NCBI RefSeq assembly: GCF_963921235.1
Contig: NC_086097.1
Coordinates: forward strand, 172,982,001 to 173,046,000
Source of the DNA: Mobula hypostoma
Lineage: Eukaryota
Direction of reading: 5' to 3'
DNA length: 64,000 nucleotides
The notes below the pieces were generated by a model, which was given only the letters and a program-made list of their open reading frames with translations, was not told the DNA's origin and made no database searches. Positions 1,643-37,131 of the stretch are shown here, piece by piece. The position numbers were made by a program, and so were the translations under genes. Numbering within the stretch: position 1 is the stretch's first letter; every line of letters begins with the position of its first letter.

Positions 1643-1696
1643 ACTCACAACACGCTGGAAGAACTCAGCAGGTCGGACAGCATCCGTGGAAACAAT

Positions 1697-1734
1697 CAGT
1701 CAATGTTTCGGGCCGGAACCCTTCGTCAGGACTG
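1697..1734 (-). ncRNA. Hammerhead ribozyme motif, inverted copy
   Basis: Reverse complement of the 3060-3097 motif. Confidence 0.78.
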
Positions 1735-1892
1735 TAGGGGGAAGGGGCAGAGGCCCTATAAAAAAGGTGGGGGGGGAGGGTGGGAAGGAGAAGGCTGGTA
1801 GGTGCCAGGTGAAAAACCAGTAAGGGGAAAGATAAAGGGGTGGGGGAGGGGAAGCAGGGAGGTGACAGGCAGGAAAGGAGAAGAAGGAATAG

Positions 1893-2796: not shown

Positions 2797-3059
2797 TTCT
2801 CTCCCCCTCACTTCCCCTATCCCTATGTCATTCTGTCCCTCCCCCAGCTGCCTATCACCTCCCTCATGGTTCCGCCTCCTTCTACTACCCATTGTGTTTT
2901 CCCCTATTCTTTCTTCACCTTTCCTGCCTGTCACCTCCCTGCCTCCCTTCCCTCACCCCTCTATCTTTCCCCTTACTGGTTTTTCACCTGGAACCTACCA
3001 GCCTTCTCCTTCCCACCCTCCCCCCACCTTCTTTATAGGGCCTCTGCCCCTTCCCTCTT

Positions 3060-3097
3060 CAGTCCTGACGAAGGGTTCCGGCCCGAAACATTGACTG
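3060..3097 (+). ncRNA. Minimal type I hammerhead ribozyme motif in PLE terminal repeat
   Basis: cagtc CTGACGA a gggttccggccc GAAAc att gactg. Stem I cagtc/gactg, stem II gggt/gccc, intact CUGANGA and GAAA boxes; stem III variant (ATT instead of GTC). Confidence 0.8.
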
Positions 3098-3447
3098 ATC
3101 GTTTCCACGGATGCTGCCCGACCTGCTGAGTTCCTCCAGCGTGTTCTGAGTGTTGCTTTGACCCCAGCAGCTGCAGAGTATTTTGTGTTTTACCTCCATA
3201 GATGCTGCCTGACTTGCTCAGTTTGTGTGTGTTGCTCAAGTTTTACAGCATCTGCGGAATCTCATGTCTACTAATTGTCTACTAATGATAGGAATTGTAA
3301 AACCATTATAGCTCTCTCCACCTAACTTCAATGTGGTAATTATCTTAACAAAAACTAACAAAACTTCTGAGGAATCCTGATTGAAATTATCATGACAAAA
3401 TCAGTTTAAACATGATATCTTGCACACCAGAGATAAATTTAGTTGGC

Positions 3448-4420: not shown

Positions 4421-6559
4421 TCCAAATATCCCACAGACATCTACTACAAGCCCATAGATTCTCGGAACTGTCTGGGAAATGCTCCCTTCTGCAGATTTTC
4501 TTGTCTCTGTGGGATCTATGTTGTTTTTAAATTAATGCTTTGCTAACAAATCCGGGAGAAACTAGAACTATTCACAATACTACAATAGCAAAACTAGCTT
4601 TACAGGAACTTATGTCAGACAAAAGATTTCCTCACAGCATTCCTGCTTTGAATTTCACTGATGGTTTAGAAGTCACAATTTATGAACGTCCTTGGCATCC
4701 GCTTCTGTGCAGCTCACTAGAGTAGCACCATGCTGTGTTTTCTATGTACTGTGCCTTGTAATGTATGACCTTTCCATTCACATAAGCATCATATATCGAA
4801 AGAAATGCCACCAGACAGAGAAAGCGCTACTATGTCCAAGGGGGCTACACAGGAGTGAATACAAGACTATATTTTTTTGTAATGAAACCTTCACAAACAA
4901 TGAAGGAACTAAGTGCTCTTTAACAAGCTGTCCAAATACATTATTGCAGGCAAAATGATGATTAATTCCAATAGTAGCTTAATAGAGGATTAAACAGTAG
5001 AAAGTTAGACCAATAATGGTTCTGGTAACACACAAGGTTATTAGGGTGCTATGCTTAGTTATTGGGACTGACTGCATTTGAAACTTAAGTTCCTTTTTGG
5101 CGAGCTAACAACACATCCTTATTGAGGCTCTGTTGGACAAGGATTAGGGCATTTTAGCCAATTGTACAGAATAACAAAGAGAAAATTCTCACTCAATGCA
5201 GTTTTATTACACATGGCACAGAAGTAGAAAATAGACAAATAACTTTGCTCAAAAAGCAAGAAATTGTTAGTTCCTGCAGAAAAGAAGAAATAGAATGGAT
5301 TTTAACTGGTTGTTCAAAGTGGTGGAAGAGGTCGGAACTGAAAAAGAAAAAAGTTGAATATTGCTACTGAGGTAGTTGTGAAAAGTATCTCTCCTCCTTG
5401 AAAGAAAGTCTGAAAAATCAATTTAATTAAACACAAACTAATAAGGTCACCAATCTGGAATGCTGACTGTCCCCGGTGAATTTGCTCAACATATTCAACG
5501 GCGCACTATTAAAGTAAAAGAAAAAGGCTCTGTATGCTCAATACACTGTACAAGGTGGGTTAAATTCCCTGCCAGAAGTTCAGACAATTTATTATATCCT
5601 TAAACTTTTTTTTAAATACAGAAAACATTCCATCATGTGTTACTCCAAAACTGGTGCTTAAGATGTAACACATCTATTTTGAAGTTCACAACATTTAAGA
5701 AAACAATATAACATGGCCATACAAAACTTCAACTTCTGTCATTATTCAAGTAGGGAGTTGGGAAGCTTGGCAAGAGAACATGTACATGGCAGATAATCTG
5801 CAAAGTGACTTCGCAAGAGGTTAACAGGCCAATCCTTGTGAAAGGCTAACAGTGAAATAATCACTTGCAACAGGGTCATATAGTGAATGGGAGGATTTTT
5901 TTAAAAAGAAAGCAACACCCTATAATTGTGCAATGCCTGCATAAAATGAAACATGAGATGCTTACATTGAATAACTTCATTTTCTTTCCCACTGTAAGTA
6001 TGTGGTATCTGAGACCATTTTCCTAATTCATTTTATTCCCTGGTGGAAGTCAAGAATGAACTAGAGCCTTTGGGGCAGTCAGTGATTCCAAATGCACAGA
6101 TTATTTCCCATTTATCTTCAGATCTGGCTTAAATGTTCTGAAACTTCAGTAACTTGGCAAGTTTAGTATTATCAAGAGGAATAAAATAATTTCATAGCTA
6201 TGAAGTCATCTAACATTCCTCTAATCTAACACTCTGAAGGCTTGTCCACACTTGAGGCTTTAATTCCATCTTTCATCCACTATGAATTATTAAACACTTT
6301 ATTTAGCACAGAAACAATTATGTCCAAATGCCATGCTTAACCAAAAGTAAATATTGAAAATAATCTTTGTTGACTAACATTGTTGTGGCAATTCATTGTA
6401 GCACATGGTACCTATTATTCTATTCTCGTATTCTGATGGGATAATTTCTAAGTGCAAAATATTGGCAACTCCAAATTCTCAAATCAAATTTTAATAGTTC
6501 TATCACAATATAGTACTCTTGTGAATGTGTAAACACTTTCTTAGCTTCAGAAGCATGAG

Positions 6560-6688
6560 ATAATCTGCAGATGCTGGAGATTCAAAGCAACACATACAAA
6601 ATGCCGGAGGAACTCAGCAGGCTATGCAGCATTTATGGAGAAAAGTTAAATACTCGACATTTTGGGCCAAGACCCTTCATCAGGACTC
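6560..6688 (-). mobile_element. Short PLE terminal-repeat insertion with degenerate hammerhead
   Basis: Minus strand reads gtcCTGATGAagggtcttggcccaaaatgtcga, followed by the shared gctgagttcctcc...cagcatctgcag tail. Confidence 0.75.
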
Positions 6689-7837
6689 TGCCTTAGTTTT
6701 ATTACTTTCCCTAATTAAAATTCAGATATGTATTTGCTTCCTCATACCTGTGATCAACTGCTTTTGACTCAGTTTTCCAAATAATCAACTAGTCCCAACA
6801 TATTAAAAAAAGAATCTCTACATTTATATAGTACCTGGTGGGGCAAGAAGAAATCTGAATTTTTCAAATAAAGGACAGTGAATATCTCGAACGAGCTGCC
6901 AGAGGAAGTGATAGAGGCAGATACAAATGCCTTGTTCAGAAGATATTTAGAAAGGTACTTGGATAGGAAAGGTATAGAAGGATGTAAGTAAATGGGATTA
7001 TCTCAAATGAATATGGATGACGTGGGCAGAAAGGGGTAATTTCTGTACATTTTTAAGATCCTTTATTACCACAGGGTACCCTGATGTGATTTATGATTTA
7101 TACAGCTAACAAGTTATGCTTGTGGTGAAGACACTGTGGAAATGAAGAAAGTCTCTCAAGACAATTTATATGTAATGGGCTGCCCCAAAAATGGAATGTA
7201 ATAATGATAACATAATCACTTTCTTTTAATAATGTTAATTAAGAGATAAATACAGGCCAGGGCACCAGGAAGAACTTCAAAAGTAACAGGGTAAAATAGA
7301 AGCGGGGGAGGGACTTCTGATCTATAGTCATTGACCTGAAGCAATTAACTCCATTATTTCTCTGTGGAAGCTGACTGACACTCCAAGTGTTTCTATTTTT
7401 ATACTCATCTTTGGGATGTATCTTCTAAACTGAATAGAATTCAGATTTTAAATGATCTTGCTGCTGTCATTTTTATTATTCTTCTTGACCTATTATTGCT
7501 GCCTATGATCTTCCAGAAACGCAGCATTCCCATTTGTTTTTCTCCCGTCATCCCATTACTTCTCTCACTGCCGCTACACTTGCTTTGAAACTGTATCATC
7601 CCCAACATTTTCTAGTTTTATTACAAGTCTTTGACCTGAAACATTAATTTAATTTCTATTCCCACGCCTGTGTGCACATATGTTCTCTGTTTTATTATTT
7701 TTGACTGCCATCTGAGGTGTTGCGCTGGATCATGGTGATGGGCAGTTGGCAGTTCTAGCTGCAGCATGTGGTTTGCCACGTTCTAGATTTTTTACTGGAA
7801 CACTGTAGCACAGAGGTATAGAACACATTGGAACCAT

Positions 7838-8047
7838 CTGCTGGGGGAACTCAACAGATTGAGCAGTATCTGTAAGAGGAAAGGAACTGTCCATATTTCA
7901 GGTCAAAATCCTGCATCAGGACTCAGTGCAGGTCAAACTGAAACATTGACATTTCCTCTCCTCCCACAACATGCTGCTCAACACGTTGAGTTCCAAAAGC
8001 AGATTGTTTGATGCCCTACATTCCAGCACCTCAGCCTCTTGTGTCTC
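7838..8047. mobile_element. Older palindromic PLE-derived mini-element
   Basis: Inverted arms (gaactcaacagattgagcagtatctgt / acaacatgctgctcaacacgttgagttc) around a degenerate hammerhead at ~7890-7950. Confidence 0.6.
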
Positions 8048-8639
8048 CATGGAACACACTGGAAACCAGATGTGGGTGCACCTGACCTCTCTGTCCACCC
8101 ATGGACCCAGAGCTGAGTCCAGGTTTTTTTGTAACATATTGATACCACTTGTAACTTGCCCCATCTAGAAATGTCAATCTTTACTAAAAGGTTAAGTGAA
8201 GATTAGTATGGGTATTAACTTCATTTGTTATTAACATTAATGTTTAAAATATTTCTACAAAATATATTGTAAGTAAATTTAGTACTTTTTATTGTTTTTA
8301 CTAGTATTGTTTAATTTTATTTAGTTACTGAAATGTTTTTCCATCATTTCTCAATAACTCTGATCATCAGATTCACTCAGATACATTGGGAAATGCTTTG
8401 GCTAGCCAAGTTGTCAGAGAGCCAGTAAGTCTGGGTGGAGATATCGCATCACCCACCAGTTGTATAGTTCCACCTGCATCCCTTTCTACTTCAAGAAGGG
8501 CTAGGACTATGTCACAGATTGTTAGGAACCTTGTGACTAGTGAGCTAGTAAGATTGGTGAAAGAAAGATACCAACTGTCTTGGGAAAGCAGCCAACATAA
8601 TCAGGCCTCCAGGTACAAGTAAAATCTATCCATCTGAGT

Positions 8640-14614: not shown

Positions 14615-15774
14615 CTGATGAGAATGCAATAAAAATAATCTGATCAGTATCACATTTCTGCTGAAAGAAACCTGAAATTTAATTTTAAAAAGATCTTGTT
14701 TTATTAAAGATATTAAGACAACCAAAGACACATAATTTTCATTGTGTCATGGTAGTATTAACTATTTCTTAACCAAAATTATAGGGCTGCAAAGACTTGA
14801 CAAAATATTCCACAAAAATATTCAAACAAGCAACATGAATAAATTGTAAAAGGAGAGAAACAAAAGGCTATACAAGGTATAAGAGGAATGCTGCACTGTC
14901 AGAAATGGGCTATCACTTTCAGATGGGACTTCGAACAAGACCCCATCTGCTCTGCAGTTTCCCCCCGGATGTAACAGGGTTCTGTTCTTGAGCACTCTTC
15001 CAGAGTTGGACCTGTTTGGGTAATGAAATGAATGTATTTAAATGAAAACAAGGCCCAACTAAAAACAACACCCGGTTAAACCAGAATATTTAATTGAAAC
15101 ATTGAAATACTATCATAAACTGAGTTTTTACACAGCAGAAGATACCTGCAGCCCAGAAAATTCATCCCTCCAGTCATTCAAGCACTCATTTATATGAATG
15201 GACAGTGCATAAATTAAGCATTCCTAACTTGGAAGGAACTGCATTTCCTTATAACACACAAGGAGGCAATTTCATGCTTAAGTTTCTCATTCTTCTAGTT
15301 CTACTCAAAAGGTTGCTACTTTGATAAGTTAATTCTTTCCCATTGATGTTGGTTTTTCTGCTGGGTGCCTTTAACATTTTTCTTCTTTTATTCCAAAGGT
15401 ATAATGTGCTGTCAGATGGTAGTCTAACAACACAGTATTTTTTTCACTACAATACAGAAGTAAAGCACTGAAAATGTTGGAAATCAAAATAAAAATAGGA
15501 AGTTTTTATTTAAAGCAAATATTGCACCACTATCTCTGCACTTTCCTCTTGTTTTGCACGTATTATTGTGTTTATTGTTGTATTTATTATTGCCATATAT
15601 AGTGTTTCATGCAAGCAAGGAATTTCTTTGTTACCTGGTGTATATGTTAATAAACTAACCTGATCAGACTTATTAGAAATACTTAATTGGTCAAGCAGCA
15701 TTAGCAGAGTGAGATATTGAGTTTACCAATGTTTCTGATGAATGGTAGATTTATGGATTTATTCCTGGAGTCAT

Positions 15775-16440
15775 AGTTATACAGTACAGAAGCAGGCTCT
15801 TTGACTCAACTCTTTCATATTAACCAAGGTGATTATGTACTCTGGCCCCATTTGCCTGAATTTGGCCCATATCCCTCTTATTCTTTCCTATCCACATTGC
15901 TGTCCAAATCTTCCAGATGTTGTAACGACAATTACCTCTACCTGCTCCTCTGGCAACTCATTCCACAAATTCACCACCTTCTGCGTGAAAAGCTTGTCCC
16001 TCAGGACCCCTTCAAATCTTTTTTACTCCACCTTAAACCTATGGCCTCTAGTGATAGACTCTCTTATTCCAGGTAAAAGGCTGTGACTATCTGCCCTTTA
16101 GACTTTTATGAACCTCTAAAATCAACTGTCAGCCTCCTCTGTTCCATGGAAAACAAAGCCAGCCTATCCAATCTCCTATTGTAACTCAAGCCCTCAAGTT
16201 CCAGGCAACATTCCCGTGGATCTTTTCTCCACACTCTCTGACTTAATTACATCTTTCTTACAGTACAAAATACTCCAACCAATGTTTTGTACAACTGTAA
16301 CATGACTTCTCAACTCTTGTGTTCAATGGCATAGCCAACAAAGGAAATCATGCCAAACACTTCCTTCACCACTTTGTCTATTGTGTCACCACATTCGGGA
16401 AATTATGTAATCATACACCAAAGTTCAGTAACACTCCTGA
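15775..16440 (-). mobile_element. Degenerate CR1 LINE 3' fragment
   Basis: Collinear similarity to the 3' part of the CR1 at 27925-28600. Confidence 0.6.
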
Positions 16441-16454
16441 AGACCCTATCATTC

Positions 16455-16990
16455 ACTTCAAATTTAAAATAAATCTATTAACAAAATGTACATATATCAC
16501 TTTGAGATTCATTTACTTGCAGGCGTTTACAGGAAAATAAAGAAAAACGATAGAATTTAAGAAAAACTATAACAAACACACACTGACAAACAACCAACGT
16601 GCATAGAAGACAAATCATACAAATAAAAGAAAATAATAGTTGTAGTCTTTTAAGGTGAGTCTGTAGTTTGTGGAATCAGTTCAGTGTTGAAGTGAGTGAA
16701 GTTATCCACACCATTTCAGGAGCCTGTTAGTTGTAGGGCAATAGTTATCCCTGAACTTGGTGGTTTGGGACCCAAGGCTCATACACCTTCTGCCCCATGG
16801 TGGTACCAAGAAGACAGCATGACGTAGACAGTGGGGCTCCTTGATGATGGATGCCACTTTCCCATGGTGGCACTTCTTGTAAATGTGCTCCATGGTGGCA
16901 AGGGCTTTTCCTGTAAAGGACTGGGCTGTATCCACCACTTTCAGGAGACTTTTTTTTGTTCCTGGGCATTGATGTTTCTGTATAGGGCAA
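16455..16990 (-). mobile_element. Rex1/Babar LINE 3' fragment
   Basis: ORF VDTAQSFTGKAL...ASIIKEPH resembles 57640-57850. Confidence 0.7.
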
Positions 16991-17271
16991 AATACAACCA
17001 GTTGTATACCTTGGCCTGATTTTGCTTCCTAAAGTGCGTCACTTTGTACTTGTCTTCAGTTTAATTCTATAAGCCATTCTCTTGCTCTCTTTCCCAGAAA
17101 ATCTACATCCTGTTGTAACTTTGATAATTTTGGTGTCATTGGCAACGTTATTAATCATGCCACCTGCATTCTCTTCTAAATCATTAATATGATTCAACAA
17201 GTTAACTCTGGTTCTCTTCCTGCAGATGATGCTTGTCCTGCTAAGAATTTCCAGCAGATCAGATCAGAATC

Positions 17272-17612
17272 GGATCAAAGAACGACTGCGCAGGTGCGTG
17301 GATGTCAGCAAGTTAGACTGGCCAGAGGAATTTAAAAGGAGATCAATTTTTCTTCGGCAGTTTGTTCAAGGAACGACTGTAAAGGCACGTGGATGTCAGT
17401 GAGTTAGACCAGCAGGAAGAGTTTAAAAGGAGATCAGTTTTTCTTCGGCAGTTTGATCGAGGAACAACTGCAAAGGCACGTGGACATCAGCGAGTTAGAA
17501 ATGTAGGAAGAGTTTAAAAGGAGATCAATTTTTCTTCGGCAGTTTGATCAAGGAACAACTGCGCAGGCGCGTGGATGTCAGCAAGTTAGACCGGCAGGAA
17601 GAGTTTAAAAGG
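17272..17612 (+). repeat. Tandem array of 91-bp monomers (~3.7 copies) at a CR1 5' end
   Basis: The aacRactg unit starts at 17281, 17372, 17463 and 17554, an exact 91-nt period. Confidence 0.92.
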
Positions 17613-19262
17613 AGGACAGCTTTATAGAATGGGCATCGGAGGAGCAGGCAACGGAGTAGCAGGAGTCAGAGTAGGAGGGCTTTGGCTCAACGGGGCTTTG
17701 GTGATAACTAGTCAAGGCCAGGTAAGTTACTTGTGAAGAATAGGAAGTATGTCTGTGAGGCCGGTGTTCAGTACTGGGTGTCAGAAGTGGGATGTCCAGG
17801 AGACTCCCAGTCTCCCAGACGGCCATATCTGCGTCAGATGCATCGAGCTGCAGCTCCTTAGGGACCGGGTTAGGGAACTGGAGATGCAGCTCGATGACTT
17901 TCATCTGGTCAGGGAAAGTGAAGAGATGATAGGAGCTATAGGTAAGTAGTCACAACGGGGCCTAGGGAGACAGAGAAGTGGGTAACAGTCAGAAGAGGGA
18001 AGGGTAAGAGTTAGATACAGTACCCCTGTGGCTGTCCACCTTAACAATAAGTACTCTTTTTTGAGTACTGTTGGGAGGGATGACCTACCTGGGGGAAGCA
18101 ACAGTAGCCATGCCTCTGGCACAGAGCCTGGCACTGTGGCTCAGAAGGGTAGGGAAAGGAAGAGGATGGCATCAGTGATAGGGGACTCTATAGTTAGGGG
18201 GGTCAGACAGGTGTTTCTGTGGATGCAGGAAAGAAACATGGAAGGTAGTTTGCAGCCCAGGTGCCAGGGTCCGGAATGTTTCTGATTGCATCCACGATAT
18301 CCTAAAGTGGAAAGGTGACCAGCCAGAGGTCGTGGTACATATTGGCACCAACGATATAGGTAGGAAAAGGGAGGAGATCCTGAAAATAGACTACAGAGAG
18401 TTAGGAAGGAAGTTGAGAAGCAGGATATCAAAGGTAGTATCTCGGGATTACTGCCTGTGCCACGCGACAGTGAGGATAGGAATAGAGTGAGGTGGAGGGT
18501 AAATGCATGGCTGAGGGATTGGAGCAGGGGGCAGAGATTCAGATTTCTGGATCACTGGGAGCTCTTTTGAGGCAAGAGTGATCTGTAAAAGAAAAGGACA
18601 AGTTGCACTTGAATCCGAGGGGGATCAATATGCTGGCAGGGAGGTTTGCTAAGGCTATTGGGGAGAGTTTAAGCCAGAATTGCTGGGGGTTGGGAACCAA
18701 ACTGAAGAGATGGAGGAAATTTGTAGACAGTGTGAGAGGGAGGATAGACAGGTGATACAGAAGGGATATGCTCAGAATGGTGGTTTGAGATATGTCTATT
18801 TTAATGCAAGGAGTATCATGAACAAAGCAAATGAGCTTAGAATGTGAATCAGCACTTGGAGCTATGATGTTGTGGCCATTACAGAGACTTGGATGGTTCA
18901 GGGGCAGGAATGGCTACTTAGAGTGCCAGGCTTGAGATTTTTCAGAAGGGCAGGGAGGGAGTCAAAAGAGGTGGGGGTGTGGCACTGCTGATCAGAGATA
19001 GTGTCATGGCTGCAGAAAAGGAGGAAGTCATGAAGGGATTGTCCACTGAGTATCTGTGAATGGAAGTTAGAAACAGGAAGGGGTCAGTAACTCTAATGGG
19101 TGTTTTTTTATAGACCACCCAATAGTAACAGGACCATCGAGGAACAGATAGGGAGACAGATTCTGGAAAGATGCAATAATAACAGGGTTGTCGTAGTGGG
19201 AGGTTTTAATTTTCCCAATATTGATCGCATCTCCCTAGAGCAAGGAGTTTAGATGGAGTGGA

Positions 19263-19466
19263 CACAAAATAATCTGCAGATGCTGGGGTCAAAGCAACAC
19301 TCACAACACGTTGGAGGAACTCAGTAGGTCGGGCAGCATCCATGGAAAAGATCGGTTGACGTTTCAGGCCGGTCCTGACGAAGGGTTCCGGCCCAAAACG
19401 TCGACCGAAGTTTTCCACGGATGCTGCCCGACCTGCTGAGTTCCTCCAGCGTGTTGTGAGTGTTGC
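19263..19466. mobile_element. Palindromic hammerhead-bearing PLE mini-element with 14-bp TSD
   Basis: TSD ttagatggagtgga at 19249-19262 and 19467-19480. Inverted arms of ~85 nt; core cggtcCTGACGAagggttccggcccaaaacGTCgaccg at 19370-19407. Confidence 0.9.
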
Positions 19467-21219
19467 TTAGATGGAGTGGAGTTTGTTAGGTATGTTTAGG
19501 AAGGTTTCCTGACACAATATGTAGATAAGCCTACAAGAGGAAGTCATCCTCCACCATCAGATTTCTCAATGGACAATGAAACCTTGTACACTACCTCACT
19601 ATTTTTTTGCACTACTTAATTAATTTAATCTTTATATTTATATTTCTTATTGTAATTTATAATTTCTAAAATTATGTATTACACAGTACCACTGCCAGAA
19701 AACAACAAATTTCATGACACATGCCAGTGATATTAAACCTGATTCTGATTTTACACTGTGGGATATTGTGATCTTGTAACAATGTGTGCTATAATCACTG
19801 AATTGTTGTGTTCAGTTCTGGTCACCTCATTATAGGAAGGATGTGGAAGCTTTAGAGAGGGTGCAGAGGTGATTCACCAGGATACTGCCTGGATTAGAGA
19901 AGATGCCTTATGAGGAGAGGTGGAGTTAAGTATAGCTTTTTTCGTTGTAGTGAAGGAGGATGAAAGGCAATTTAAAAGAGGTGTATAACATGACAGCCGG
20001 CATAGATTGAGAGCCAGTGCCTGTTTTCCCTCATGGTGGAAGTAGTTAAATTAAGAAGGCACATTTTTAAGGTGACTGGAGGAAAATATAGGGAGGATGT
20101 CAGAGATAGGCCTTTTAGACAGAGAGTGGTAAAAGAATGGAATGCACTGCCAGGACTGGTGGTAGAGGCAGATACATCAGGGACATTCAAGAGCCTCTTA
20201 GATCGGCACACGGATAAAAGAAAAATGCAGGTCTATGTGAGAGGGACAGGCAAGGTTGATCTTGGAGTAGGCAGAGCTTCATGAACTAAACTCTTCTATG
20301 TTCTAAGCCCCTTTAGAGAAGGAAAAATAAAGGTACAGTTTGTCACCAACTCAAGGGCATTTTAGAGATGAGATATAAATGTTGACCTTACAGTGACACC
20401 TATAACCTAAAGATGAACTGTAAAATGTTAAGTATTTGTTGGATTCTACTATAGAGGAAGTTAGTGGTTTGTTCCAAGTAGCATTAAAATTTTTATCCAA
20501 AATGATCACCATGACAAGTGGGACTGTGGCTATTCACATGAAAATATTTTCATTTCTAAGTACTGAATGTTAGATATCAAAAACATGCACTTGTGGATTA
20601 CATAATATGTTTCTGCTCATTCTTTAGAGTTTAGTAAAATAGTAGCTGGCCACATATTTTAGTTAGCATTCAGAAGAATAGATCTACTGAAAAAAGCTAT
20701 TTATATTACTTGAGAAAAATGTAAATGAATAACACTTCTGTCAGGAATGGCTGCTCAAGGACATTCTGTTAAGTCTTGTGTTTCAGACAAGGGCCAGAGA
20801 GCAGCACTCTTGGCCTCTAAGCCAGAAGGTTGCAGTCTTGAAGTCTGATATTAGTATGAAAAAAAGCAGGCAAACATTTCAATGCAATGCTGAAAGTGAT
20901 TTGCATTGCTTGAGTTACCAGTTTGTCTTTTCAGTGGACATAAAATATTCCATGGCACAATTTCAAAGAACAACTCTGGAGCTCTGTCCACTATCCAAGT
21001 CAATGGGCCCAATTATGGCTCACGCATGGATAGTCACACTGTATTAGGAAGCTTATTGCCAGCCTTGGTCCCTGCACACTACTCTGTGTCTGAGTTCACT
21101 CCCAAGTCCAAGTGCATTCTGTAACATACTGGGATCAGACAATATGTGTTACTAGTCTCACAGCTTTACACCTGCCACAGGTGGTATATCCCACAGCAAC
21201 ATTAAAAACATTAGCATCA

Positions 21220-21620
21220 GAGTCATAGTTTTGAAAGCATAGTAAAAGGTCCTTCAACTCAACTTGTCCATGCCAACCAAGTTGGTTTACTTGAGCTAGT
21301 CTCAATTCCCTGTATTTGTCCTATACTCCTCTGAACTTTTCCTACCCAAGTACCTGTCCAAATATCCTTTCAATGTGGCAAATCCACCACCTCAACCACT
21401 ACCATATACTCACTACTATCTGAGTGAAAATGTTGCCCCTTTGATCTTTAAAACCCTTCTCACCTTAAAACTATGCCCTCCAGTATAAAACTCCCCTACC
21501 CTGGGACAAAGTTTGTCACCATTCACCTTATCCATGCCCCTCATGATTTTATAAACCTTTAGGAAGTCATCCTTCAGCCTCTTATGCACCAGGGAAGAAA
21601 AGTCTCAGCCTACCCAGCCT
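21220..21620 (-). mobile_element. Degenerate CR1 3' fragment
   Basis: Similar to the CR1 3' end at 27940-28340. Confidence 0.55.
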
Positions 21621-23489
21621 CTATTACATTGTTTCAACTATGATAAATAGGGAAATGTGAAATCAATAAAAACACCATTTAGTTGTTGAATCAAAAGGCA
21701 AGATTCTAATCACTGGTTTAGTAACAGTTTGATGACTTTGCACTAAAATGGAATTTTTATGTTTCAACTGTGCATATTTTTTTAATGAACGTTGCTTAAA
21801 TGATGCTAACATGTGATGCTGATGCAAGTAAGCTTTCCATTGCATCTGTTCACATGTGACACAGCATATGCTCAAGTACAGACCTGTCCTTGAGCATATG
21901 ACAATAACTTTGATTTTGACAGGAGGTGGGTGGGCTTGTGGGTGCCTGAAGTTTAGCTGCTTCTCTTATCAAAGACTGACTGAGGCAGCAGTGTCAGCAA
22001 GATATGAGGAGCCACATCACTGCTGAAGTGTGGTCTCTGGGATGGAGATGGGTGAATGAACGTGAGGTTTTAGACAGGTACAAGGCAGCACTCCTTCCTC
22101 TATCAATAATGCCTGAATGGTTTATCTGATAAAAGCACCTTGCTGCTTATGCAAGACTGAGTACAATAAGTAAAGATTGTGTACAAGTCTATACAGATTC
22201 TTGCATTACAACAGTATCTACACTTTAAAAATAAGTGACCTTTTTGCATGAAAAGGATGCAAAAAGAGCTATGTCATTGCAAGTGCTTCCTTTTTCCCTT
22301 CTAATTCGAATTACAATATTTAAACACAGTCAGAAAAGATGGAAGAAAATGAGGAAATGAGTTTAGTAGACACCAGCTTCAATTCATAAAGTCATTCAAA
22401 ACAGCATCAAATTAAGGAACAGTGGCTCAATTAAGGTAAAAGTGCTAGAAGGACAATTACCTTTACCAAATTAAAAAACTGCAGATGCTTGCACTGAACC
22501 TCCGCTGTTTCACTTACTTCAGACAGCTGGTAAAATGTTTCTACTTTATCAGTAACCCAGCGAAGGGCCACTTAGCAACATCCGAACATAAAGAGAAATT
22601 TAATACACCCAAGTCACTACATTCTTTTGCATTCAAAACACATTCCAGATCTCTTAAATAGGAGGCGTCTTTGCCAAGTCATCTTCCTTAATTTGAAACA
22701 GATATGATATTTTTTTCTTAAGTTCTATAATGTACCTGTTACTTCATGAAGTAGAAATTTATTCAGTGTCACTCTAAAATGTGTTTTAATAGGTCAGATT
22801 TTGATATGAAAATGATAATTTTAATGTAATTTGCTGTTAACAATGTGCAAATTATCCAGAAAATTTTAGACATGAAAATATGTCAACTGCAAATTGTTAT
22901 AGTCGTTAGATGATTTTCACTGCTCTGCTATTAAATTTGCAGAAATAATAATAAGAAGAATAATAAATACTTTATTGATCCCAAGTGGGAAATTCTTTGA
23001 CTCTTCCCATTCTCTGCCACTTTAATTCTCTATCCCACTCCACCCTGACCTATCAAATTGTGGTTTCTGCCAACATTACAACGGCAGCCCAATGCACAGT
23101 TGAGGAACAAGCGCTCATCTTCTGTGTGGATATACTGCAGCTTTCTGGACTCAGTACCGAATTCTACAACCTTAAGTAACTTGATTTCTCAGAAAGTAAA
23201 AGTTGGCCATCAGCTTTGTTGCTTGTGTTCTTCTTTATTTTGCTTGTGAGGCGTGTTGGGCATGTCTTACTGTCCTGTATTTTGCAACTCCTACACTCTT
23301 ATGTCTATAGAGAGACAGGATATTGCAGATGCTGGAATCTAGCGCTACAGACAATCAGCTGGAGGAACTCAGTAGTTAAAGCTGTAGGGAGAAAGGAATT
23401 GTGTTTCAGGTTGAAACTTTTCATCAATTGTTGGACAATCCAGGGGTGCATGAAAACAGCCAGTTTTTAATCAGGTCAGTAATCAAGAT

Positions 23490-26400
23490 TTCAAAACCAG
23501 AGTTTCATGGCAGTTTTTCTGATTTAAGGAGTGATCAATCAGCAAGCAACATTGTGTAAAAAGAGCTACCTTTCAGTCAGGTCCGCATTCAAGATTTAAA
23601 AAATAGAGCTTTGAGCCATTTTCTCTTGAGTTGGACAATCCACACCTGGGGTGCTTTAAAAGAGCCACTTTTTAATCAGGGCAGCGATCGAGATTTTAAA
23701 AGCAAAGTTTTGCGCCAGTTTCTCTTAGTTGAGGGGCAACCAATCAGCGAGGGATTCATTAGAGAGGGACAATTAAAACAGTGCAGGTGCAAGTGGAGTG
23801 GTCGTTCTCCTGAGTGTGCCAGTCCTCAGTGAATCCTGACGAAGGGTCTCGGCCTGAAACGTTGACTGTACCTCTTCCTAGAGATGCTGCCTGGCCTGCT
23901 GCGTTCACCAGCAACTTTGATGTGTGGTGCCAGTCTTTAGAGTGGCTTTGGCTGATGAGGCTTAGACGAAGTCAGGCTTGGGTGAGGTAGATTGCCTTGT
24001 AAGTTACTCTTTCTGTATTCTTATTTGTTCATTCCTCATGGTGCATAGTATAGTGAGAATGGCTCCTAAGACAGTATTTTGTACTGCATTTGGGATGTGG
24101 GAAGTCTGGGAGACCTCAGGTCCTGAGAGAACGCAATAAGGAACTGGAGCTGCAGCTCGATGATCTTCAACTCATACAGGAGAATGAGGCAGTGATAGAC
24201 AGGAGCTACAGGGAGGTAGTCACCCCAGGTTGCAGGAGACAGGTAACTAGGTGAATGTCAGGAGAAGGAGGGGAAACACACAGCCAGTTGAGAGTACACT
24301 TGTGGCCATTCTCCTTGATAGTAAATATATAACTTTGATACTATTGAGGGGGACGTCATACTGGGGGGTGGGAGAAGAGCCACCAGCGACCAGGTCTTTG
24401 ACACTGAGTCTGGTGCTGTGGCTCAGAAGAGCAGAGAGGTGAAGAGGACTGCAGTGTGTGTAGGAGATTCTTTAGTCATAGCAACAGAGACAAGTTTCTG
24501 TGGGCACGATAGAGATATCTGGAAGGTATGTTGCCCTGCTGGTGCTAGGATCAGGGATGTCCCGGATCGTGTCCATAGCATTCGCAAGGGCAAGGGTGGG
24601 CAGCCAGAAGTCTTGGTACATATTGGCACCAATAACATAGGTAGACAAGGTGAGAAGGTCCTGAAGAGAGATTTTAGGGAGCTAAGTAGAAAGCCGAGAA
24701 ACAGGACCTCCAGGGTAGTTATCTCTGGATTACTGCCTGCGCCATGTGCCAGTGAGGGTAAGAATAGGATGATTTGGCAGGTGACTGAATAGCTGAGGAA
24801 CTGGTGCAGGGGGCGGGTGTTTGGATATATGGATCATTGGGCTGGAGAAGGTATGACCTTTACAAAAGGGCTGTATTTCACCTGAACTCAAGGGGATCCA
24901 ATATCCTTGTGGGCAGTTTGGCTAAAGTTGTTCAGGTGGGTTTAAACTAATTTGACAGGGGGACAGGAACCAGAGTGATAGTGTTGAAGGTGAGGTAGTT
25001 AATTTACAAACAGGCAATGCGTAGTGAGACTCCAAGCAAGGAAAAGCTGGTAATAGGGCAAAATTGCAGTCAACAGGATGAGTTGCAATGTAAAAGTGGG
25101 GCAAAATGGAAAACCATAATAACCAATTAACCAATTTCCCCCGGGATCAATAAAGTATGACTATGACTATGACTATGGAAAGGGTGAACACAGGACTAAA
25201 GGTGTTATATTTGAATGTGCGCAGTATATGGAATAAAGTCAATGAACTTGTGGTATAATCACTGCTTGACAAGTATGGCTGAATCATGGCTGAAAGAAGA
25301 TTGTAGCTGGGAGCTCAATGTCCAGTGATACACATTATATTAAAAGGACAGACAGGAAGGCAGAGGGGGTGGCGTTGCTCTGTTGGTTAAAAAATGAAAT
25401 CATATCATTAGAAAAGGTGACAGAGGGTCAGAGGTATTGAATCGTGGATAGAGCTAAGGAACAGCAAGGGTAAAAAGACCCTGATGGGAGTTATATACAC
25501 ACTCCCCAAACAGTAGTAAGGATGTGGTCTACAAGTTACAATGGGAGATAGAAAATGCATTACAATAGTCATGGGGGATTTCTATATGCAGGTAGATTGG
25601 GGAAATCAGGTTGGTGCAGGATTTCAACAGAGTAATTTCTAGAATGCCCGTGAGATGCCTTTTTAGAGCAGCTCGTGGTTGAGCCCACTAGGGGATCAGC
25701 TATTTGGGATTGGATGTTGTGCAATGAACTGGAATTGATTAGAGAGCTTAAGGTAAAAGAAGCCTTGGGAGCAAGTGATCATAAATTGACCAAATTCACC
25801 CTGAAATTTGAGAAGGAGAAGGTAAAGTCAGATGTATCAGTATTACAGTAGAATAAAGAGAATCACAGAGTCATGAGAGAGGCATTGGCCAGAATTGATT
25901 AGGAAAAAAAACATAGGCAGGAGTGACAGAAGAGCACCAATGCCTGGAACTTCTGGAAGCAATTCAGAAGACACAGGACATATACATCCCAATTAGGAAG
26001 AAGTATTCTAAAGGCAAGATGACTAACCGTGACTAACAAGAGAAGTCAAGGCTAACATAAAAGCCAAAAAGAGAGCATATAAAGCAGCAAAAATAAATGG
26101 GAAGTTAGAGGATTTGGAAACTTTTAAAACCCAACAGAAAGCAACTAAAAAAGTCATTAAAGATGGAATATGAAAGTAAGCTGGTCAATAATATTAAAGA
26201 GATTACCAAAAGTTTCTTCAGATATATAAAGTGTAAAAGAGAGGTGAGAGTGGATATTGGACTGCTTGAAAATGATGCTGCAGAGATGGTAATGGGGGAC
26301 TACAAAATAGCAGATGAACTGAAGAAGTATTTTATGTCAGTCTTCACTGTGGTTAGACAAAGGAGAATCAGTTGATGTCCTGTACTTGGATTTTCAGAAG

Positions 26401-27455
26401 GCTTTGACAAGGTACCACACAAGTTACGAGCCCATGGCATTAAAGGAAAGATTCTAGCATTGATAAAGTAGTGGCTGATTTGCAGGAGGCAAAGAATGGG
26501 AATTAAGGGAGCCTTTTCTGGCTGGCTGCCAGTGACTAATGGTGCACCACTGGGGTTTGTGTTGGGATTGATTCTTTTTACGTTATATGTCAATGGTTTG
26601 GATGATGGAATTGATGAAATGGCAGATGGAATAGAGAGTCAGGAAGTATATGGTCATGCACTTTGGTAGAAGAAGTGAAAGGGTTGACTATTTTCCAAAT
26701 GGAGAGAGAAAATACAAAAAACCTGATGTACAAAGGGATTTGGGAGTCCTTGTGCAGGATTCCCTACAAGTCTATTTGCAGATTGAGTCTGTGGTGAGGA
26801 AGACAAATGCAATGTTAGCATTCATCTTAAGAGGACTAGAATATAAAAGCAAGGATGTAATGTTGAGATTTTATAAAGCACTGGTGAGGCCTCACTTGGA
26901 GAATTGCGAGTAGTTTTAGGCCTGTTATCTTAGAACTTAAGTACTGAAACTGGAGATGGTTCAAAAGAGGTTCACGAAAATGATTCCAGGATCAAGTGGC
27001 TTGTCACATGAAGACAGTTTGATGGCCTTGGGCCTATAATCACTGGAATTCTGTAGAATGAGGGGTGTTCTCATTGAAACCTATTGAATTGTGAAAGGCC
27101 TTGATAGAGTGGATGTGGAGAGGATGGTTCCTATGGTGGGAGTGTCTAAGACCAGAGGACACAGCCTCAGAATAGAGGGGTGTTCTTTTAGAAAAGAGAT
27201 TAGGAGGAATTTCTTTATCAAGAGAATAATTAATCTGGAATTTATTGCCAAAGGCAGCTCTGGAGGCCAATACTTTATGGATATTTAAGGAAGAGGTTGA
27301 TAGATTCCTGATTGGTCATGCCATGAAGGAATACAGGAGGGGAGATGGCAGGAGATTGGGACTGAGAGGAAAAATGGATCAGTGATGATGAAATGGTGGA
27401 GCATACTCAATGGGCCAAATGGACTAATTCTACTCCTATGTCTTTTGGTCTTATC
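23490..27455 (+). mobile_element. Decayed, internally deleted CR1 LINE (5' UTR, esterase ORF1, APE-RT ORF2)
   Basis: VGDSLV, VLVHIGTNNI, FFRYIK, LDFQKAFDKVPH, QRDLGVLV, YKALVRPHLE, TRGHSLRI; deletions near 26352 and 26617. The 5' boundary is approximate. Confidence 0.88.
23832..23926 (+). mobile_element. 95-nt PLE terminal-repeat insert beginning at the hammerhead
   Basis: aatcCTGACGAagggtctcggcctGAAAcgttgactg; imperfect TSD gtgccagtcYtYag at 23816 and 23927. Confidence 0.82.
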
Positions 27456-27919
27456 ATTCTTTTATCTATGTTATATTATCTCTGTCTTCATTCACTCATT
27501 GATCAGATAATTCCATTTACAAGTCTATTTTCCAATTTTTATTTCTACAACTGCTCTTACACCAATTCCTTATGCCCTTCTCCTTTGTTCCTTGTTTTCA
27601 ATTTTCCTCATTAGGCAGGGAAAAGCTAGGCCTGCTGTTATCCAAGTTCCCAATTTCTCCCTTGCCTCTGCTATATTATTGTCAGCCAGCAATAGCTGCA
27701 TAAATTACTTTCAATATGGCAGGCAAAAGAAAGTTTAATGAAACAGCAAAGCAAGCTGCCTGCTCCCACAAACTTGGGGTCAATTGCACCAACAGCAGTC
27801 ATGTAATACATCTTCACATTCTGGTTGTATTACTAACTGAAGGAAATCATTCATGGGGTGTGTGTAACACCTGACAAAGCTGGTGTCTATTCCCTAATCC
27901 TTATTACCCTTCGTGATAT

Positions 27920-30900
27920 AACCATACAGCCACATAAAAATTACAGCACGGAAACAGGCCATCTTGGCCCTTCTAGTCTGTGCCGAACTCTTACTGTCAC
28001 CTAGTCCCACCAACCTGCACTCAGCCCATAACCCTCCATTCCTTTCCTGTCCATATAGTTGTCCAACTTAACTTTAAACAACAACATTGAACCTGCCTCA
28101 ACCACTTCTGCTGGAAGCTCGCTCCACACAGCTACCACTTTCTGAGTAAAGAATCTCCCCTTCATGTTACCCCTATACTTTTGCCCTTTAACTCTCAACT
28201 CATGTCCTCTTGTTTGAATCTCCCCCACTCTCAATGGAAAAAGCCTATCCATGTCAAATCTATCCATCCCCCTCAAAATTTTAAATACCTCTATCAAGTC
28301 TCCCCTCAAACTTCTATGTTCCAAAGAATAAAGACCCAACTTGTTCAACCTTTCTCTGTAACTTAGGTGATGAAACCCAGGTAACATTCTGGTAAATCTT
28401 CTCTGTACTCTCTCTATTTTGTTGACATCTTTCCTATAATTCGGTGACCAAAACTGTACACAATACTCCAAATTTGGCCTCACGAATGCCTTGTACAATT
28501 TCAACATTACATCCCAACTCCTATTCTCAATGCTGTGATTTATGAAGGCCAGCATACGAAAAGCTTTCTTCACCACCATATCCACATGAAATTCCACCTT
28601 CAGGGAACTATGCACCATTATTCCTAGATCCCTCTGTTCTACTGCATTCTTCAATGCCCTACCATTTACCATGTATGCCCTATTTTGATTAGTCCTACCA
28701 AAATGTAGCACCTCACATTTTTCAAAATTAAACTCCATCTGCCATCTTTCAGCCCACTCTTCTAATTGGCCTAAATCTCTCTGCAAGCTTTGAAAACCTA
28801 CTTGATTATCCACAACTCCACCTATCTTAGTATCATCTGCATACTTACTCATTCAAGTTACCACCCCATCATCCAGATCACTAATGTATATGACAAACAA
28901 CATTGGACACAGTACAAATCCCTGAGGCACACCACTAGACACCGTCCTCCAATCTGACAAACAGTTATCCACCACTACTCTCTGGCATCTCCCATCCAAC
29001 CACTGCTGAATCCATTTTGCTACTTCAATATTAATACCTAACGATTGAACCTTCTTAACTAACCTTCCGTGTGGAACCTTGTCAAAGGCCTTACTGAAGT
29101 CCATATAGACAACATCCACCACTTTACCCTCGTCAACTTCCCTGGTAACCTCTTCAAAAAAGTCAATAAGATTTGTCAAACATGACCTTCCACGCACAAA
29201 TCCATGTTGACTGATCCTAATCAGACCCTGTCTATTCAGATAATTATATATACCATCTCTAAGAATACTTTCCATCAATTTACCCACCACTGACGTCAAA
29301 CTCACAGGCCGATAATTGCTAGGTTTACTCTTAGAACCCTTTTTAAACAATGGAACAACATGAGCAATATGCCAATCCTCCGGCACCATCCTCATTTCTA
29401 ATGACATTTGAAATATTTCTGTCAGAGCCCCTGCTATTTCCACACTAACTTCCCTCAAGGTCCTAGGGAATATCCTGTCAGGACCCGGAGACTTATCCAC
29501 TTGTATATTCCTTAAAAGCGCCAGTACTTCCTCTTCTTTAATCATCATAGTTTCCATAACTTCCCTACCTGTTTCCCTTATCTTACACAATTCAATATCC
29601 TTCTCCTTAGTGAATACCGAAGAGAAGAAATTGTTCAGAATCTCCCCCATCTCTTTTGGCTCCACACATAGCTGTTCACTCTGATTCTCTAAGGGACCAA
29701 TTTTATCCCTCACTATCCTTTTGCTATTAATATAACTGTAGAAATCCTTGGGATTTATTATCACCTTACTTGCCAAAGCAACCTGATATCCTCTTTTAGC
29801 TTTTCTAATTTCTTTCTTAAGATTCTTTTTACATTCTTTATATTCCTCAAGCACCTCATTTACTCCATGCTACCTATATTTATTGTAGATATCTCTTTTT
29901 TTCCAAACCAAGTTTCCAATATCCCTTGAAAATCATGGCTCTCTCAAACTTTTAACTTTTCCTTTCAACCTAACAGGAACATAAAGATTCTGAACCCTCA
30001 AGATTTCACCCTTAAATGACCTCCATTTCTCTATTACATCCTTCCCATAAAACAAATTGTCCCAATCCACTCCTTCTAAATCCTTTCGTATCTCCAAAGT
30101 TAGCCTTTCTCCAATCAAAAATCTCAACCCTGGGTCCATACCTATCCATCTCCATAATTATACTGAAACTAATGGCATTGTGATCACTGGACCCAAAGTG
30201 CTCCCCAACACAAGCCTCGGTCATTCGCTAACAGGAGATCCAACCCTGCCCCTTCTCTAGTTGGTTCCTCTATGTATTGCTGCAAAAAACTATCCTGCAC
30301 ACATTTTACAAACTCCAAACCATCCAGTCCTTTTACACTATGGGCCTCCCAGTCTATGTGTGGAAAATTAAATCTCCCTTAATGACAACCTTGTACTTAC
30401 TACAAATATCTGCTATCTCCTTACAAATTTGCTCCTCCAATTCTCGCTCCCCATTTGGTGGTCTATAATACACCCCCATAAGTGTTAGTACACCTTTCCC
30501 ATTCCTCAATTCCACCCAAATAGCCTCCCTAGACGAGCCCTCTAATCTATCCTGCCAGAGCACCGCTGTAATATGTTTTCTGACAAGCAATGCAACACCT
30601 CCCCCTCTTGTCCCTCCGATTCTATCACACCTGAAGCAATTAAATCCAGGAATATCTAGTTGCCAATCACACCCCTCCTGTAACCATGTTTCACTAATAG
30701 CTACCACATCATACTTCCAGGTATCAATCCATGCTTTAAGCTCATCCACCTTTCTTATAATGCTCTTAGCATTAAAATAAATGCATTTAAGAAATTTTCC
30801 ACCTCTTACTCTCTGTTTATCACTAACGGTGCAAACAACTTTACTATTTTCTTTTTCTTCCTTCTCCCCTACATCTGTTCCTACACTCTGGTTCCCCTCC

Positions 30901-31780
30901 CCCCTTATATCTAGTTTAAATCCACCGGAGCCTCTCTAGCAAACCTACCTGCAAGAATATTTGTCCCCCTCCAGTTCAGATGTAAACTGTCCCACTGGAA
31001 CAGGTCTCAGCTTCCCTGGAAAACTGCCCAATTATCTATAAATCTGAAGCCCTCCTTCCTGCACCACGTCTTCAGCCACATGTTGATCTGCACTATCTTA
31101 CTATTTCTAAACTCGCCTGCACATGGCACTGGTAGCAATCCTGAGATTGCTATCCTGGAGGTCCTGTCCTTTAACTTGGCGCCTAACTCCCAAAACTCAT
31201 CTTTCAGGACCTCCTCACTCTTCCTACCCACGTCATTGGTCCCTAAGTGGACCACGACATCCGGCTGCTCATCCTCCCTCTTGAGAATACCGAGAACTCG
31301 ATCCGAGATATCGCGGACCTTGGCACCAGGGAGGCAACAGACCATCCATGATTCCGATCTCTTTCACAGAACCTCTTATCTGTCCCCCTAACTATCGAAT
31401 CCTCTATCACTATTGCTCTTCTCTTTTCTCTCCTTCCCTTCTGACTTGAGGGTCCCATCTCGGCGCCAGAGACGCAACCACTGCAACTTGTCCCTGATAG
31501 GTCGTCCCCATCAACAGTATCCAAAACGATGCACTTATTATTGGTTGGAACAGCCACAGGGGTGCTCTGTCTATTCCCCTTCCCTCTCCTGACAGTCACC
31601 CAGCTACCTGTCTCCTGACTCTTAGGGGTGACTATCTCACTGTAACTCCTGTTTATTTCTGCCTCTGCCTCCCGAATGATCCGAAGTTCATCCAGCTCCA
31701 GCTCCAGCTCCAGCTCCAGCTCCTTAACTCAGTTTGTCAGGAGCTGCAGCTGGATGCACCTTTTACAGGTGTAGTCATCA
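27920..31780 (-). mobile_element. Young, near full-length CR1 LINE (ORF1 esterase plus ORF2 APE-RT) with few disabling lesions
   Basis: ORFs 31007-31599 (VVVHLGTNDV), 30354-30749 (ISETWL, GGGVALLV), 28853-29854 (NYRPVSLT, DFSKAFDKVPH, GVPQG) and 28001-28852 (KYADD). Confidence 0.95.
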
Positions 31781-32658
31781 GCTTTCTTGAGCTACTGCAG
31801 TCTATCAGCAGAAGGTACTCCTTATGTGCTGTTACACAGGAATTAGCCCCAGCAACAATGAATGTTTTCATCACGGTGGTAGGTGATGGGGAAGGGATCT
31901 TGCAAGAAGCATTCTAATCTTTTAAATTGGACAGAGTTCATTCAAAACTGGCAATAAATGTGACAGATAATTTATTGTTTTATCAAAATGAGCTCATCCA
32001 ACCCATAAAAAATAAAACTGTCCTTTTATCTTTCACAGAAACAATTAGTTAACTGATTATTTACAGGTTATTTTTAACTTTAACAATCATCTCCCACCCA
32101 CCCACACACAGACAGGCCTCCAACCTCAGGATATGCTGCCTCTGGGCCTCCAGTCTTTAGCTGATAGTATATATATGGAATGAACTGCCAAAGAAAGTGG
32201 TTGAGACAGGCACAAAAACAAGTTTTAAACAACAGCTGGAATGGTCCATGGATAAGAAAGGATTAGATGAATTTGGGTCAAGTATGAGCAAACAGGAGTA
32301 GAGTAGCTTGAATGGGCATCTTGATCAGCACAGGCCAGTTGTGCTGGAAGGCCTGTATGACTCTTTCTATGGCTCTGAGTTTGGAGAATCAGCAGCTAAG
32401 TTCGGGATAATTGATAACAACCATTGCTTGGACTTTAACTCAAGGTCCAGAGTGTGACCTCTTGATCATAGTTTGAAGCTAATTGTTTTTTAAAAGAAAG
32501 GAAGCATAATATCAAAGAGATAGGTCTTCGATGTCAATTATGAATTATTCAAAATCAATCTATTTGTTCTTCATTGGAGTCTCCAGGAATCTAATAATAG
32601 AGTTCTCCATTCAGCCAACACTCACTTTCAATAGAATTGCTATAGACTCTATTCTTAC

Positions 32659-32855
32659 CTCTGCTCTTCAGCAATTTCTTGATTGTTATTAAGAACTATC
32701 CTCCACAGGTCAGAAGCTACCAGCTCCTTCTGATCACTAGCCAATGTGACGTTAGGCAGCTGTAGCTCACACGCTTTGCTTTCTGACAAGCTAAATTCAC
32801 GATAATCCACAAATATTTGTTGAAGTTCATCCCAGTACTCTAGGCTGCATGGTAC
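32659..32855 (-). CDS. VPS13B: VPS13B internal coding exon (197 nt, phase 0 to 2)
   Basis: Acceptor tttgaaacag, donor AG|gtaaga. Encodes VPCSLEYWDELQQIFVDYREFSLSESKACELQLPNVTLASDQKELVASDLWRIVLNNNQEIAEEQ, in frame with the preceding exon. Confidence 0.93.
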
Positions 32856-35404: not shown

Positions 35405-37131
35405 TAGTGCTTAAAGGAAGTACTCACCCCCTTTGGAAGTTTTCATGTTTTATTGTTTTACATCAATGAATCACAGTGGATTTAATTTGTTTTTTTTGAC
35501 ACTAATGAACAGAAGAGACTCTTTCATGTCAAAGCGATAACAAATTTCTACAAATTGGTCTAAATTTCTTTCAATTATTAAACACAAAATAATTGATTGC
35601 ATAATTAATCACCCCCTTCAAGTCAGTATTTAATTACTCTCCCTCTTCAAGTCAGTATTTTATAGATGCACCTTTGGCAGCAATTACAGCCTTGTCTGTA
35701 TGGATAGGTCCCTATCAGCTTTGCACATCTGGACCCTGCAATTTTCCCATATTCTTCTTTACAAAACTGCTCAAGCTCTGTCAGATTGCATGGGGATCGT
35801 CTGTGAACAGCCCTTTTCAAGTCCAGCCTCAAATTCTCAATTGGATTGAAGTTTGGACTCTGAGTTGGCCATTCCAGGATATTAACTTTGTTGTTTTTAA
35901 GCTATTCTTGTGTAGCTTTGGGGTCACGGTCTTGCTGGAAAACAAATCTTCTGCCAAGCCATCGTTCTCCTGGAGACTGCATCAGGTTTTCCTCCAGCAT
36001 TTCCCTGTATTCTGCTGCATTCGTTTTACCTTCTATCTTCAGAAGCCTTCCAGGTCCTGCTGCAGTGAAGCACGATACAGACGCCACCAAACTTCACAGT
36101 AGGGATAGTGTGTTTTTAATGATGCACAGTTTTGGGCTCATGCCAAACATAGCGTTTAGTCTGATGGCCAAAAGCTCAATTTTGGTTTCATAGGACCATA
36201 GAAACTTCTTCCAGCTGACTTCAGAGTCTCCCACATACCTTCTGGCAAACTCTAGCTGAGATTTTATGCGAATTTTTTTCAACAGTGGCTTTCTCTTTGC
36301 CACTGTCCCATAATGCTACGAATGGTGAAGCACCTGAGCAACAGTTGTTGTATGCACAGTCTCTCCCATCTCAGCCACTGAAGCTTGTACCTCCTCCAGA
36401 GTTGTCATAGGTCTCTTTGTGGCCTCCCTCATTAGTCCCTTCTTGCATGGTCACTCAGTTATTGAGGGTGGCCTGCTCTGGGCAGATTTACAGCTGTGCC
36501 ACGTTCCTTCCATTTCTTGATGATTGACTTAAATATACTCCAAGTGATATTTAGTGACTTGGAAATGTTCTTCTATCCATCTCCTGAATTATGCTTTTCA
36601 ATAATCTTTTCATGAAGTTGCTTGGAGTGTTCTTTTGTTTTTGCCAGGATACTGACTCACAAACAGTTGGATCTTCCAGATACAGGTGTATTTTTACTAT
36701 AATCAATTGAAACACCTTGACTGCACACATCTCCAAAAACGATCTCCATTTAACTAATTATGTGACTTCTAAAACCATTTAGCTGCACCAATGACTTAGC
36801 GTGTCATATTAAAAGTGGTGAATACTTATGCAATCAATTATTTTGTGTTTTAGATTTGTAATTAATTTAGATCATTTTGTAAATATGTTTTCATTTTACA
36901 TAGAAACATAGAAAACCTACAGCACAATACAGGCCCTTCTGCCCTCAAAGCTGTGCCGAACACGTCCTTACCTTAGAAATTACTCAGGGTTACCCATTTC
37001 ATTTTCTGTTGATCAGTGTCAAAAAAGCCAAATTAAATCCACTGTGATTCAATGTTGTTAAACAATAAAACACGAACACTCCCGGGGGGGGGGGGCGGGG
37101 GGGGCAGGGTGAATACTTTTTATCGGCTCTG
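35405..37131 (-). mobile_element. Tc1-family DNA transposon (defective) with long IR/DR-type inverted repeats and TA TSD
   Basis: Inverted repeats of ~210 nt (aatcacagtggatttaatttg / caaattaaatccactgtgatt) with inner direct repeats. Transposase remnants KRKPLLKK, FLWSYETKIEL, FVFQQDRDPK, NLTELEQFCKEE. Confidence 0.92.
36898..36996 (-). mobile_element. CR1-type 3'-end fragment inserted in the Tc1 inverted repeat
   Basis: catagaaacatagaa tail and tacagcacaatacaggcccttc; flanked by the duplication tttcatttt. Confidence 0.7.

Follow-up and report, generated by a model that had tools for sequence, protein, structure and literature searches.

Two Short 3' pLTR Ends of a PLE, Joined Head to Head Within a CR1 Element of a VPS13B Intron

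How does a stretch of only 204 nt come to hold two inverted copies of one sequence, with a hammerhead ribozyme motif lying across the point at which they meet? In the window (by which we mean the whole stretch of DNA analyzed, 64 kb long), the insert in question is made of two short 3' pLTR ends of a very common Penelope-like element (PLE), joined head to head. As one of the two-armed PLE insertions, it belongs to a known class, and it is no retrozyme. Probably a single insertion event produced the two pieces, with both nicks of the target priming reverse transcription. The locus by itself matters little, being an unremarkable case of a pattern already described. It is also a clean fossil of PLE integration, the later steps of which are left undefined in print (PMC11167929, PMC8557442). 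The part of possible use to PLE specialists is a pile-up of arm ends at the edge of hammerhead stem I, which is testable.

Results

The insert (19263-19466) is flanked by an exact 14-nt direct repeat, and it lies in an old LINE within an intron:

19249 to 19262, plus strand: left copy of the target-site duplication (TSD), CR1 sequence, 14 bp, exact
19467 to 19480, plus strand: right copy of the TSD, 14 bp, exact
17737 to 19545, plus strand, boundaries approximate: the host, a decayed CR1-type LINE with ORF1 pieces and part of an endonuclease
14620 to 32663, minus strand, edges approximate: the VPS13B intron with the insert, between two exons that follow each other directly when aligned to the protein
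43778-43575, 32858-32664, 14619-14437, 12794-12444 and 10547-10377, minus strand: five VPS13B exons found by protein alignment, the second and third of which bound the intron

Exact repeats of at least 14 nt at a spacing of 60-500 nt occur only twice in the 64 kb (a count that leaves out a tandem array at 17.3-17.6 kb and a purine-rich tract at 51.1-51.8 kb), and each of the two flanks a two-armed PLE mini-element. Contigs of relatives were compared from four sequencing runs at 86% likeness, a level at which paralogues dominate and an orthologous empty site is indistinguishable from a filled one; the best-matching DNA sequencing runs have about half of the sequence words in common with the window. 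Contigs from two related species, possibly paralogous CR1 copies, bridge the site of the insert, and among the matches listed, the net skip is 218 nt (204 + 14) in three and 219 nt in two, with additional indels in the remaining bridging matches. Because other CR1 copies have the site once, with a net skip of 218 nt, the 14-bp repeat is a true TSD. The first-pass annotation had described a 204-nt insert with a perfect 14-bp TSD placed in a CR1, and it was right on both counts, the repeat being exact and single in other CR1 copies and the endonuclease part of the CR1 being recognizable at 18662-19213 (tblastn E 5e-28, query PF03372). The closest named proteins are from sharks, at 92% for VPS13B and 65% for the PLE protein, which makes the source a cartilaginous fish. 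The host CR1 has a 91-bp tandem array (17273-17623) at its 5' end.

Within the insert, positions along each arm are counted from the hammerhead core base C3:

19263 to 19372, minus strand: arm B, the tailed pLTR end, 110 nt, +13 to +122; 89% to window positions 3078-3187
19372 to 19466, plus strand: arm A, the tail-less pLTR end, 95 nt, -3 to +91; 92% to window positions 3062-3156
19263 to 19293, minus strand: the PLE "tail," 31 nt, on arm B only (tail as in PMC3846280, PMC8557442 and PMC11167929)

The arms are complementary at 89% over 84 nt, and the hairpin that they make is far beyond chance (minimum free energy -155.6 kcal/mol; z -18.8 and -22.7 on the two strands; 0 of 200 shuffles). Arm A begins at the edge of stem I, and arm B, which is sense to VPS13B, begins within stem II and has no more of the hammerhead than its 3' half; at the junction, then, stem II of the minus arm meets stem I of the plus arm. 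The palindrome is asymmetric, with the 31-nt tail on one side only: the stretch from -3 to +12 belongs to arm A alone and that from +92 to +122 to arm B alone. Because each arm has sequence that is missing from the other, a single cDNA that simply folded back on itself is excluded, and the asymmetry fits priming from both nicks at two reverse transcription (RT) start sites. A DNA transposon or MITE with terminal inverted repeats was rejected as well, the arms being pLTR sequence and one end having the unpaired tail, and so was a miRNA gene (28.8 bits vs. 80).

The arms differ at 8 of 79 nt, always on one side only when set against the window paralogue, and four of these eight differences are at CpG; in the relatives' contigs, the paralogue letter is the majority at all six of the eight sites that are listed. 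Read from the sequence, this would be about 5% of neutral decay per arm. Selection on the hairpin was considered and rejected, since three of the six single arm changes on the plus strand break a pair and three keep a G-U pair. The copy is likely inert after this decay and would do no more than fold into a long hairpin within VPS13B pre-mRNA.

What of the ribozyme? The parts below were assigned by sequence and with our own numbering:

19370 to 19407, plus strand: minimal type I hammerhead motif, which spans the junction
19370 to 19374 and 19403 to 19407, plus strand: the two sides of stem I
19375 to 19381 and 19395 to 19402, plus strand: core
19402/19403, plus strand: predicted cut

Stem I, the CUGANGA box and stem II are present, and stem III is absent. 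The core base at 19395 is A, whereas it is G both in the other arm and in the paralogue; by the numbering assigned above, this base is G12. G12 is the general base of the hammerhead, and its change to A slows cleavage by >500-fold to about a million-fold (PMC2553840). Because the change falls in a CpG, the core was likely whole at insertion. The hammerhead is now mutated, and it is predicted not to fold in the insert, where its stems have a pairing probability of 0.0000 and a forced fold costs +28.2 kcal/mol. The minus strand, which is the VPS13B-sense one, has half a motif only, and the insert holds no second same-strand motif for dimer cleavage, arm B being on the opposite strand and without CUGANGA; as single motifs, minimal hammerheads have shown no cleavage. 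An intact-core hammerhead pattern has no match at 19370-19407, and Rfam gave 0 matches at gathering score in the window and, at E up to 10, generic hairpins far below gathering and no hammerhead.

Stem I across the junction, cggtc/gaccg, pairs at five of five positions. Both window paralogues have cagtc/gactg, and an older copy has gaccg without compensation. In contigs of related species, among which the reference biases those that align, the prevailing letter at 19406 is C for X1 and X5 (T 23% and 28%) and not for X9 (T 82%), so gaccg appears to be a subfamily letter restricted to a lineage rather than one private to this copy. An argument from depth that the parent had cagtc (33-43 thousand at 19370-19371 vs. 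a bin mean of 505 thousand) was set aside because depth summed over contigs does not count copies, nor does it give the share of the subfamily. The two inverted terminal-repeat arms, the junction at stem I/II and the unusual stem I had all been reported in the first-pass annotation, and each of them stands. The change in stem I may be compensatory, as suggested there, or the 5' cgg may derive from the inverted arm.

The parent of such an insert can be approached through a longer relative:

1642 to 3192, plus strand: longer two-armed PLE, of a sister subfamily of the parent, with a 255-nt inverted arm, an ORF end with GIY-YIG and a tailed 3' pLTR

Its ORF end aligns at 43% over 294 aa (E 1e-70) with P0006, which carries RVT_1 and GIY-YIG, and its direct GIY-YIG match is weak (E 0.0096); its flanking repeat is 12 nt with one mismatch. 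Of the features of an EN+ PLE insertion, pLTR origin, 5'-truncated copies with an adjoining inverted copy, a tail on one end and a TSD are found. No RT core of the parent PLE lies within the 64-kb window, and scans with a pLTR pattern gave 0 hits in viral contigs, 0 in metagenome contigs and 0 in prokaryote genomes. This 1.55-kb unit keeps a 327-codon open frame at 1813-2796, and its insertion split an older pLTR copy (1527-1641 and about 3193-3263).

Other PLE arms are plentiful in the window. Merged BLAST hits gave 26 intervals, from which five weak or low-complexity ones (at 30574, 51124, 51738, 54544 and 59210) were dropped, leaving 21 arms. Their 3' ends fall into two main classes about 33 nt apart, with eight at +87 to +94, eight at +121 to +127 and five elsewhere; the outer ends of the insert are one in each class. 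Four two-armed units with a flanking repeat are present, with four different junctions and one tailed arm each, and the junction of the insert is found in one of the four. Beside the insert and the 1.55-kb unit, these are:

39635 to 39861, no strand assigned: second two-armed mini-element, 227 nt, of another pLTR subfamily, with an exact 15-bp TSD and a different junction
7834 to 8051, no strand assigned: third, older two-armed mini-element, with a 13-nt flanking repeat, 1 mismatch

The three mini-elements (204-227 nt) thus come from three pLTR subfamilies. In the second, the junction makes use of an inverted match of 3 nt that links stem I with the core, stem I again pairs at five of five positions, and both cores are mutated; in the third, the tail-less end aligns only to +75. 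The stretch at 54244-54760 is possibly another old two-armed PLE unit, with no clear TSD.

The 5' ends of the arms are uneven, with 9 of 21 at -6 to +1, the stem I edge, or six once old families with unknown upstream sequence are excluded. The nine starts are at 6687, 7923, 19372, 23427, 23834, 39731, 39732, 47911 and 61323. Against a rough uniform null over 120 nt, the clustering has p = 4e-6 for the nine and p = 2e-3 for the six; alignment to one reference may inflate it, and the upstream letters were inspected by eye. Two solo arms at this edge have no partner (6551-6687 and 23834-23930). Could the edge be the place at which the ribozyme cuts? This candidate was rejected, for the predicted cut site lies about 30 nt further downstream, and the pile-up suggests a defined RNA or cDNA end other than the ribozyme cut. 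In five of six long copies, a pyrimidine tract and then CAG precede the edge. By its letters, this resembles a splice acceptor, though the CAG also belongs to stem I; for the Penelope of Drosophila virilis, an intron end at helix I is reported in PMC4209133. The solo tail-less arm at 23816-23937, in a CR1 5' region, has an 11-nt flanking repeat with one mismatch and seven extra bases before its start.

Comparison with Known Systems

The published PLE insertion unit, as laid out in PMC3846280 and PMC8557442, has a 5'-truncated copy in inverted orientation, a tail of 30-40 bp at one of its ends and a TSD. Insertions of the Pen2a_Av type (PMC3846280; Fig. 2 of PMC8557442) share with ours the head-to-head 5'-truncated copies, the 31-nt tail on one arm, the TSD and a parent that has RT plus GIY-YIG at its C terminus; ours differs in that its arms are only about 100 nt and no ORF is left, and its TSD is 14 bp where the rotifer PLE examples in these accounts have 8-10 bp. 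The hammerhead is likewise familiar: like the minimal hammerheads of metazoan PLE pLTRs in PMC4209133, it has no stem III, an extra base before stem II and a palindromic 15.2-16.2, and that paper already describes such hammerheads in pairs, on opposite strands and at distances of 100-700 bp. Unlike those, it has G12 changed to A, with one near-complete motif and a half motif on the other arm.

With non-LTR retrozymes, as presented in PMC7229834 and in a preprint that samples one cartilaginous fish (bioRxiv 10.64898/2026.07.22.740005), the insert has in common that it is noncoding, of a few hundred nucleotides or less, pLTR-derived and in possession of a type I hammerhead. Retrozymes there come as head-to-tail tandems with intact hammerheads and circular RNA, whereas the insert is one head-to-head unit with a broken core. 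The literature compared also includes PMC8969392 and PMC6765202. The center of the insert is about 55-60% GC.

In L1, 5' inversion by twin priming means that two nicks prime two cDNAs, which are joined at microhomology inside one TSD. There, the second cDNA is primed internally, and the result is two nonoverlapping parts; in the insert, by contrast, both starts are near the same RNA end and the arms overlap, which gives the palindrome. In our literature search, no link between twin priming and PLEs turned up.

Origin of the Insert

The outer ends of the insert are at both of the usual PLE 3' ends, and each arm has sequence of its own; together, these point to two primings in one insertion event. 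In such an event, the GIY-YIG endonuclease of the PLE would cut the two strands 14 bp apart. One 3' end would then prime at the RNA's tail end, and the other would do so at a start site about 31 nt inside. Each cDNA would extend for about 100 nt, the one halting at the stem I edge, where stops are frequent, and the other in stem II, and their ends would be joined via microhomology of 1-3 bases (one if the parent had cagtc and three if it had cggtc). The anole PLE protein is on record as having, in vitro, the abilities that this scheme asks for, in that it cleaves and extends both target strands and starts RT at two neighboring sites between which the tail lies; a dimer is predicted (PMC11167929). 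The first-pass annotation had offered an inverted truncated PLE insertion as one of two readings, and this reading fits everything tested.

Arkhipova et al. in 2013 proposed another route to head-to-head PLE repeats (PMC3846280), in which antisense PLE RNA primes itself, its 3' end folding back at a short self-complementary spot. Self-priming would use the same short homology at the junction, and it can place the start of the tailed arm downstream of that of the tail-less one, an arrangement seen in the insert and in the second mini-element. In the unit at 1642-3192, however, the tailed arm is the longer one, and self-priming alone does not account for a tail-less end that falls in an RT start class also seen in solo arms (compare PMC11167929). 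We judge a by-product of this kind to be unlikely.

The second reading in the first-pass annotation was of an independently mobile, retrozyme-like family, which is to say a nonautonomous palindromic family that propagates itself by means of PLE proteins, and we now consider it very unlikely that the insert belongs to one. The perfect stem I across the junction would suit such a family, as would the three mini-elements within 64 kb, the recurrence of a near-identical junction in relatives' contigs and the fact that pLTR sequence alone can be mobilized in trans (PMC3846280). Against it, the mini-elements represent three subfamilies with three junctions, a different one for each unit; there is no tandem arrangement; the hammerhead is damaged and buried in the hairpin; the decay is one-sided only; and among the rows listed, no letters common to both arms are distinct from the high-copy subfamily. 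Nor would one expect a second-generation copy made by a single priming to have its ends exactly in the two RT start classes.

The recurrent junction deserves a closer look. A variant with one extra A behind 19371 occurs in four X1 contigs (depth 773) and five X5 contigs (depth 886), and these summed depths compare with roughly 4-55 per single listed contig. X9 has two more junction forms, one going from 19308 to 19375 and one with five letters behind 19370, and all variant junctions in X1, X5 and X9 restart at the stem I edge. Of about 227,500 contig pieces from the relatives, 32 are listed, and none of these spans the junction of the insert itself. The extra-A variants are, from their letters, most likely similar junctions at other loci; their restart at the stem I edge fits a hotspot, and small reamplified lineages would also be compatible with it. 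Because 9 of 21 arms begin at that edge, junctions there mark a hotspot and are no proof of a family. The first-pass annotation had proposed that by-products would be told by junctions unique to each locus and evenly spread along the PLE. The junctions in the window do differ from each other, but the arm ends are not evenly spread, and the demand for evenness is too strict because clustered junctions arise without any family. A search of the literature (mostly open-access papers) gave nothing specific, either on a pLTR family of palindromic form or on junctions located at the hammerhead. One could still imagine, as a long shot, that a short PLE RNA with its 5' end fixed at the stem I edge feeds fold-back inserts of 200-230 nt and that some junctions, by rebuilding a perfect stem I, are recopied as a palindromic MITE-like family.

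Least probable of all, and very much so, is a longer two-armed insertion (such as the unit at 1642-3192) that later lost its center by microhomology-mediated deletion, an event known in PLE copies (PMC3846280), since a later deletion would not target the start of arm A, which is at the same edge as the starts of the partnerless arms.

Other Elements in the Window

Several elements in the window were noted in passing. A fairly young CR1-type LINE with long RT and endonuclease frames is on the minus strand at 28001-31760. A 30-bp inverted repeat (97%, with a 10-nt loop) at 50440-50509 is unrelated to the pLTR. Two units bounded by inverted repeats lie at 35427-37091 and 40897-41468, and the frames within the former look like what we take to be a Tc1-type transposase.
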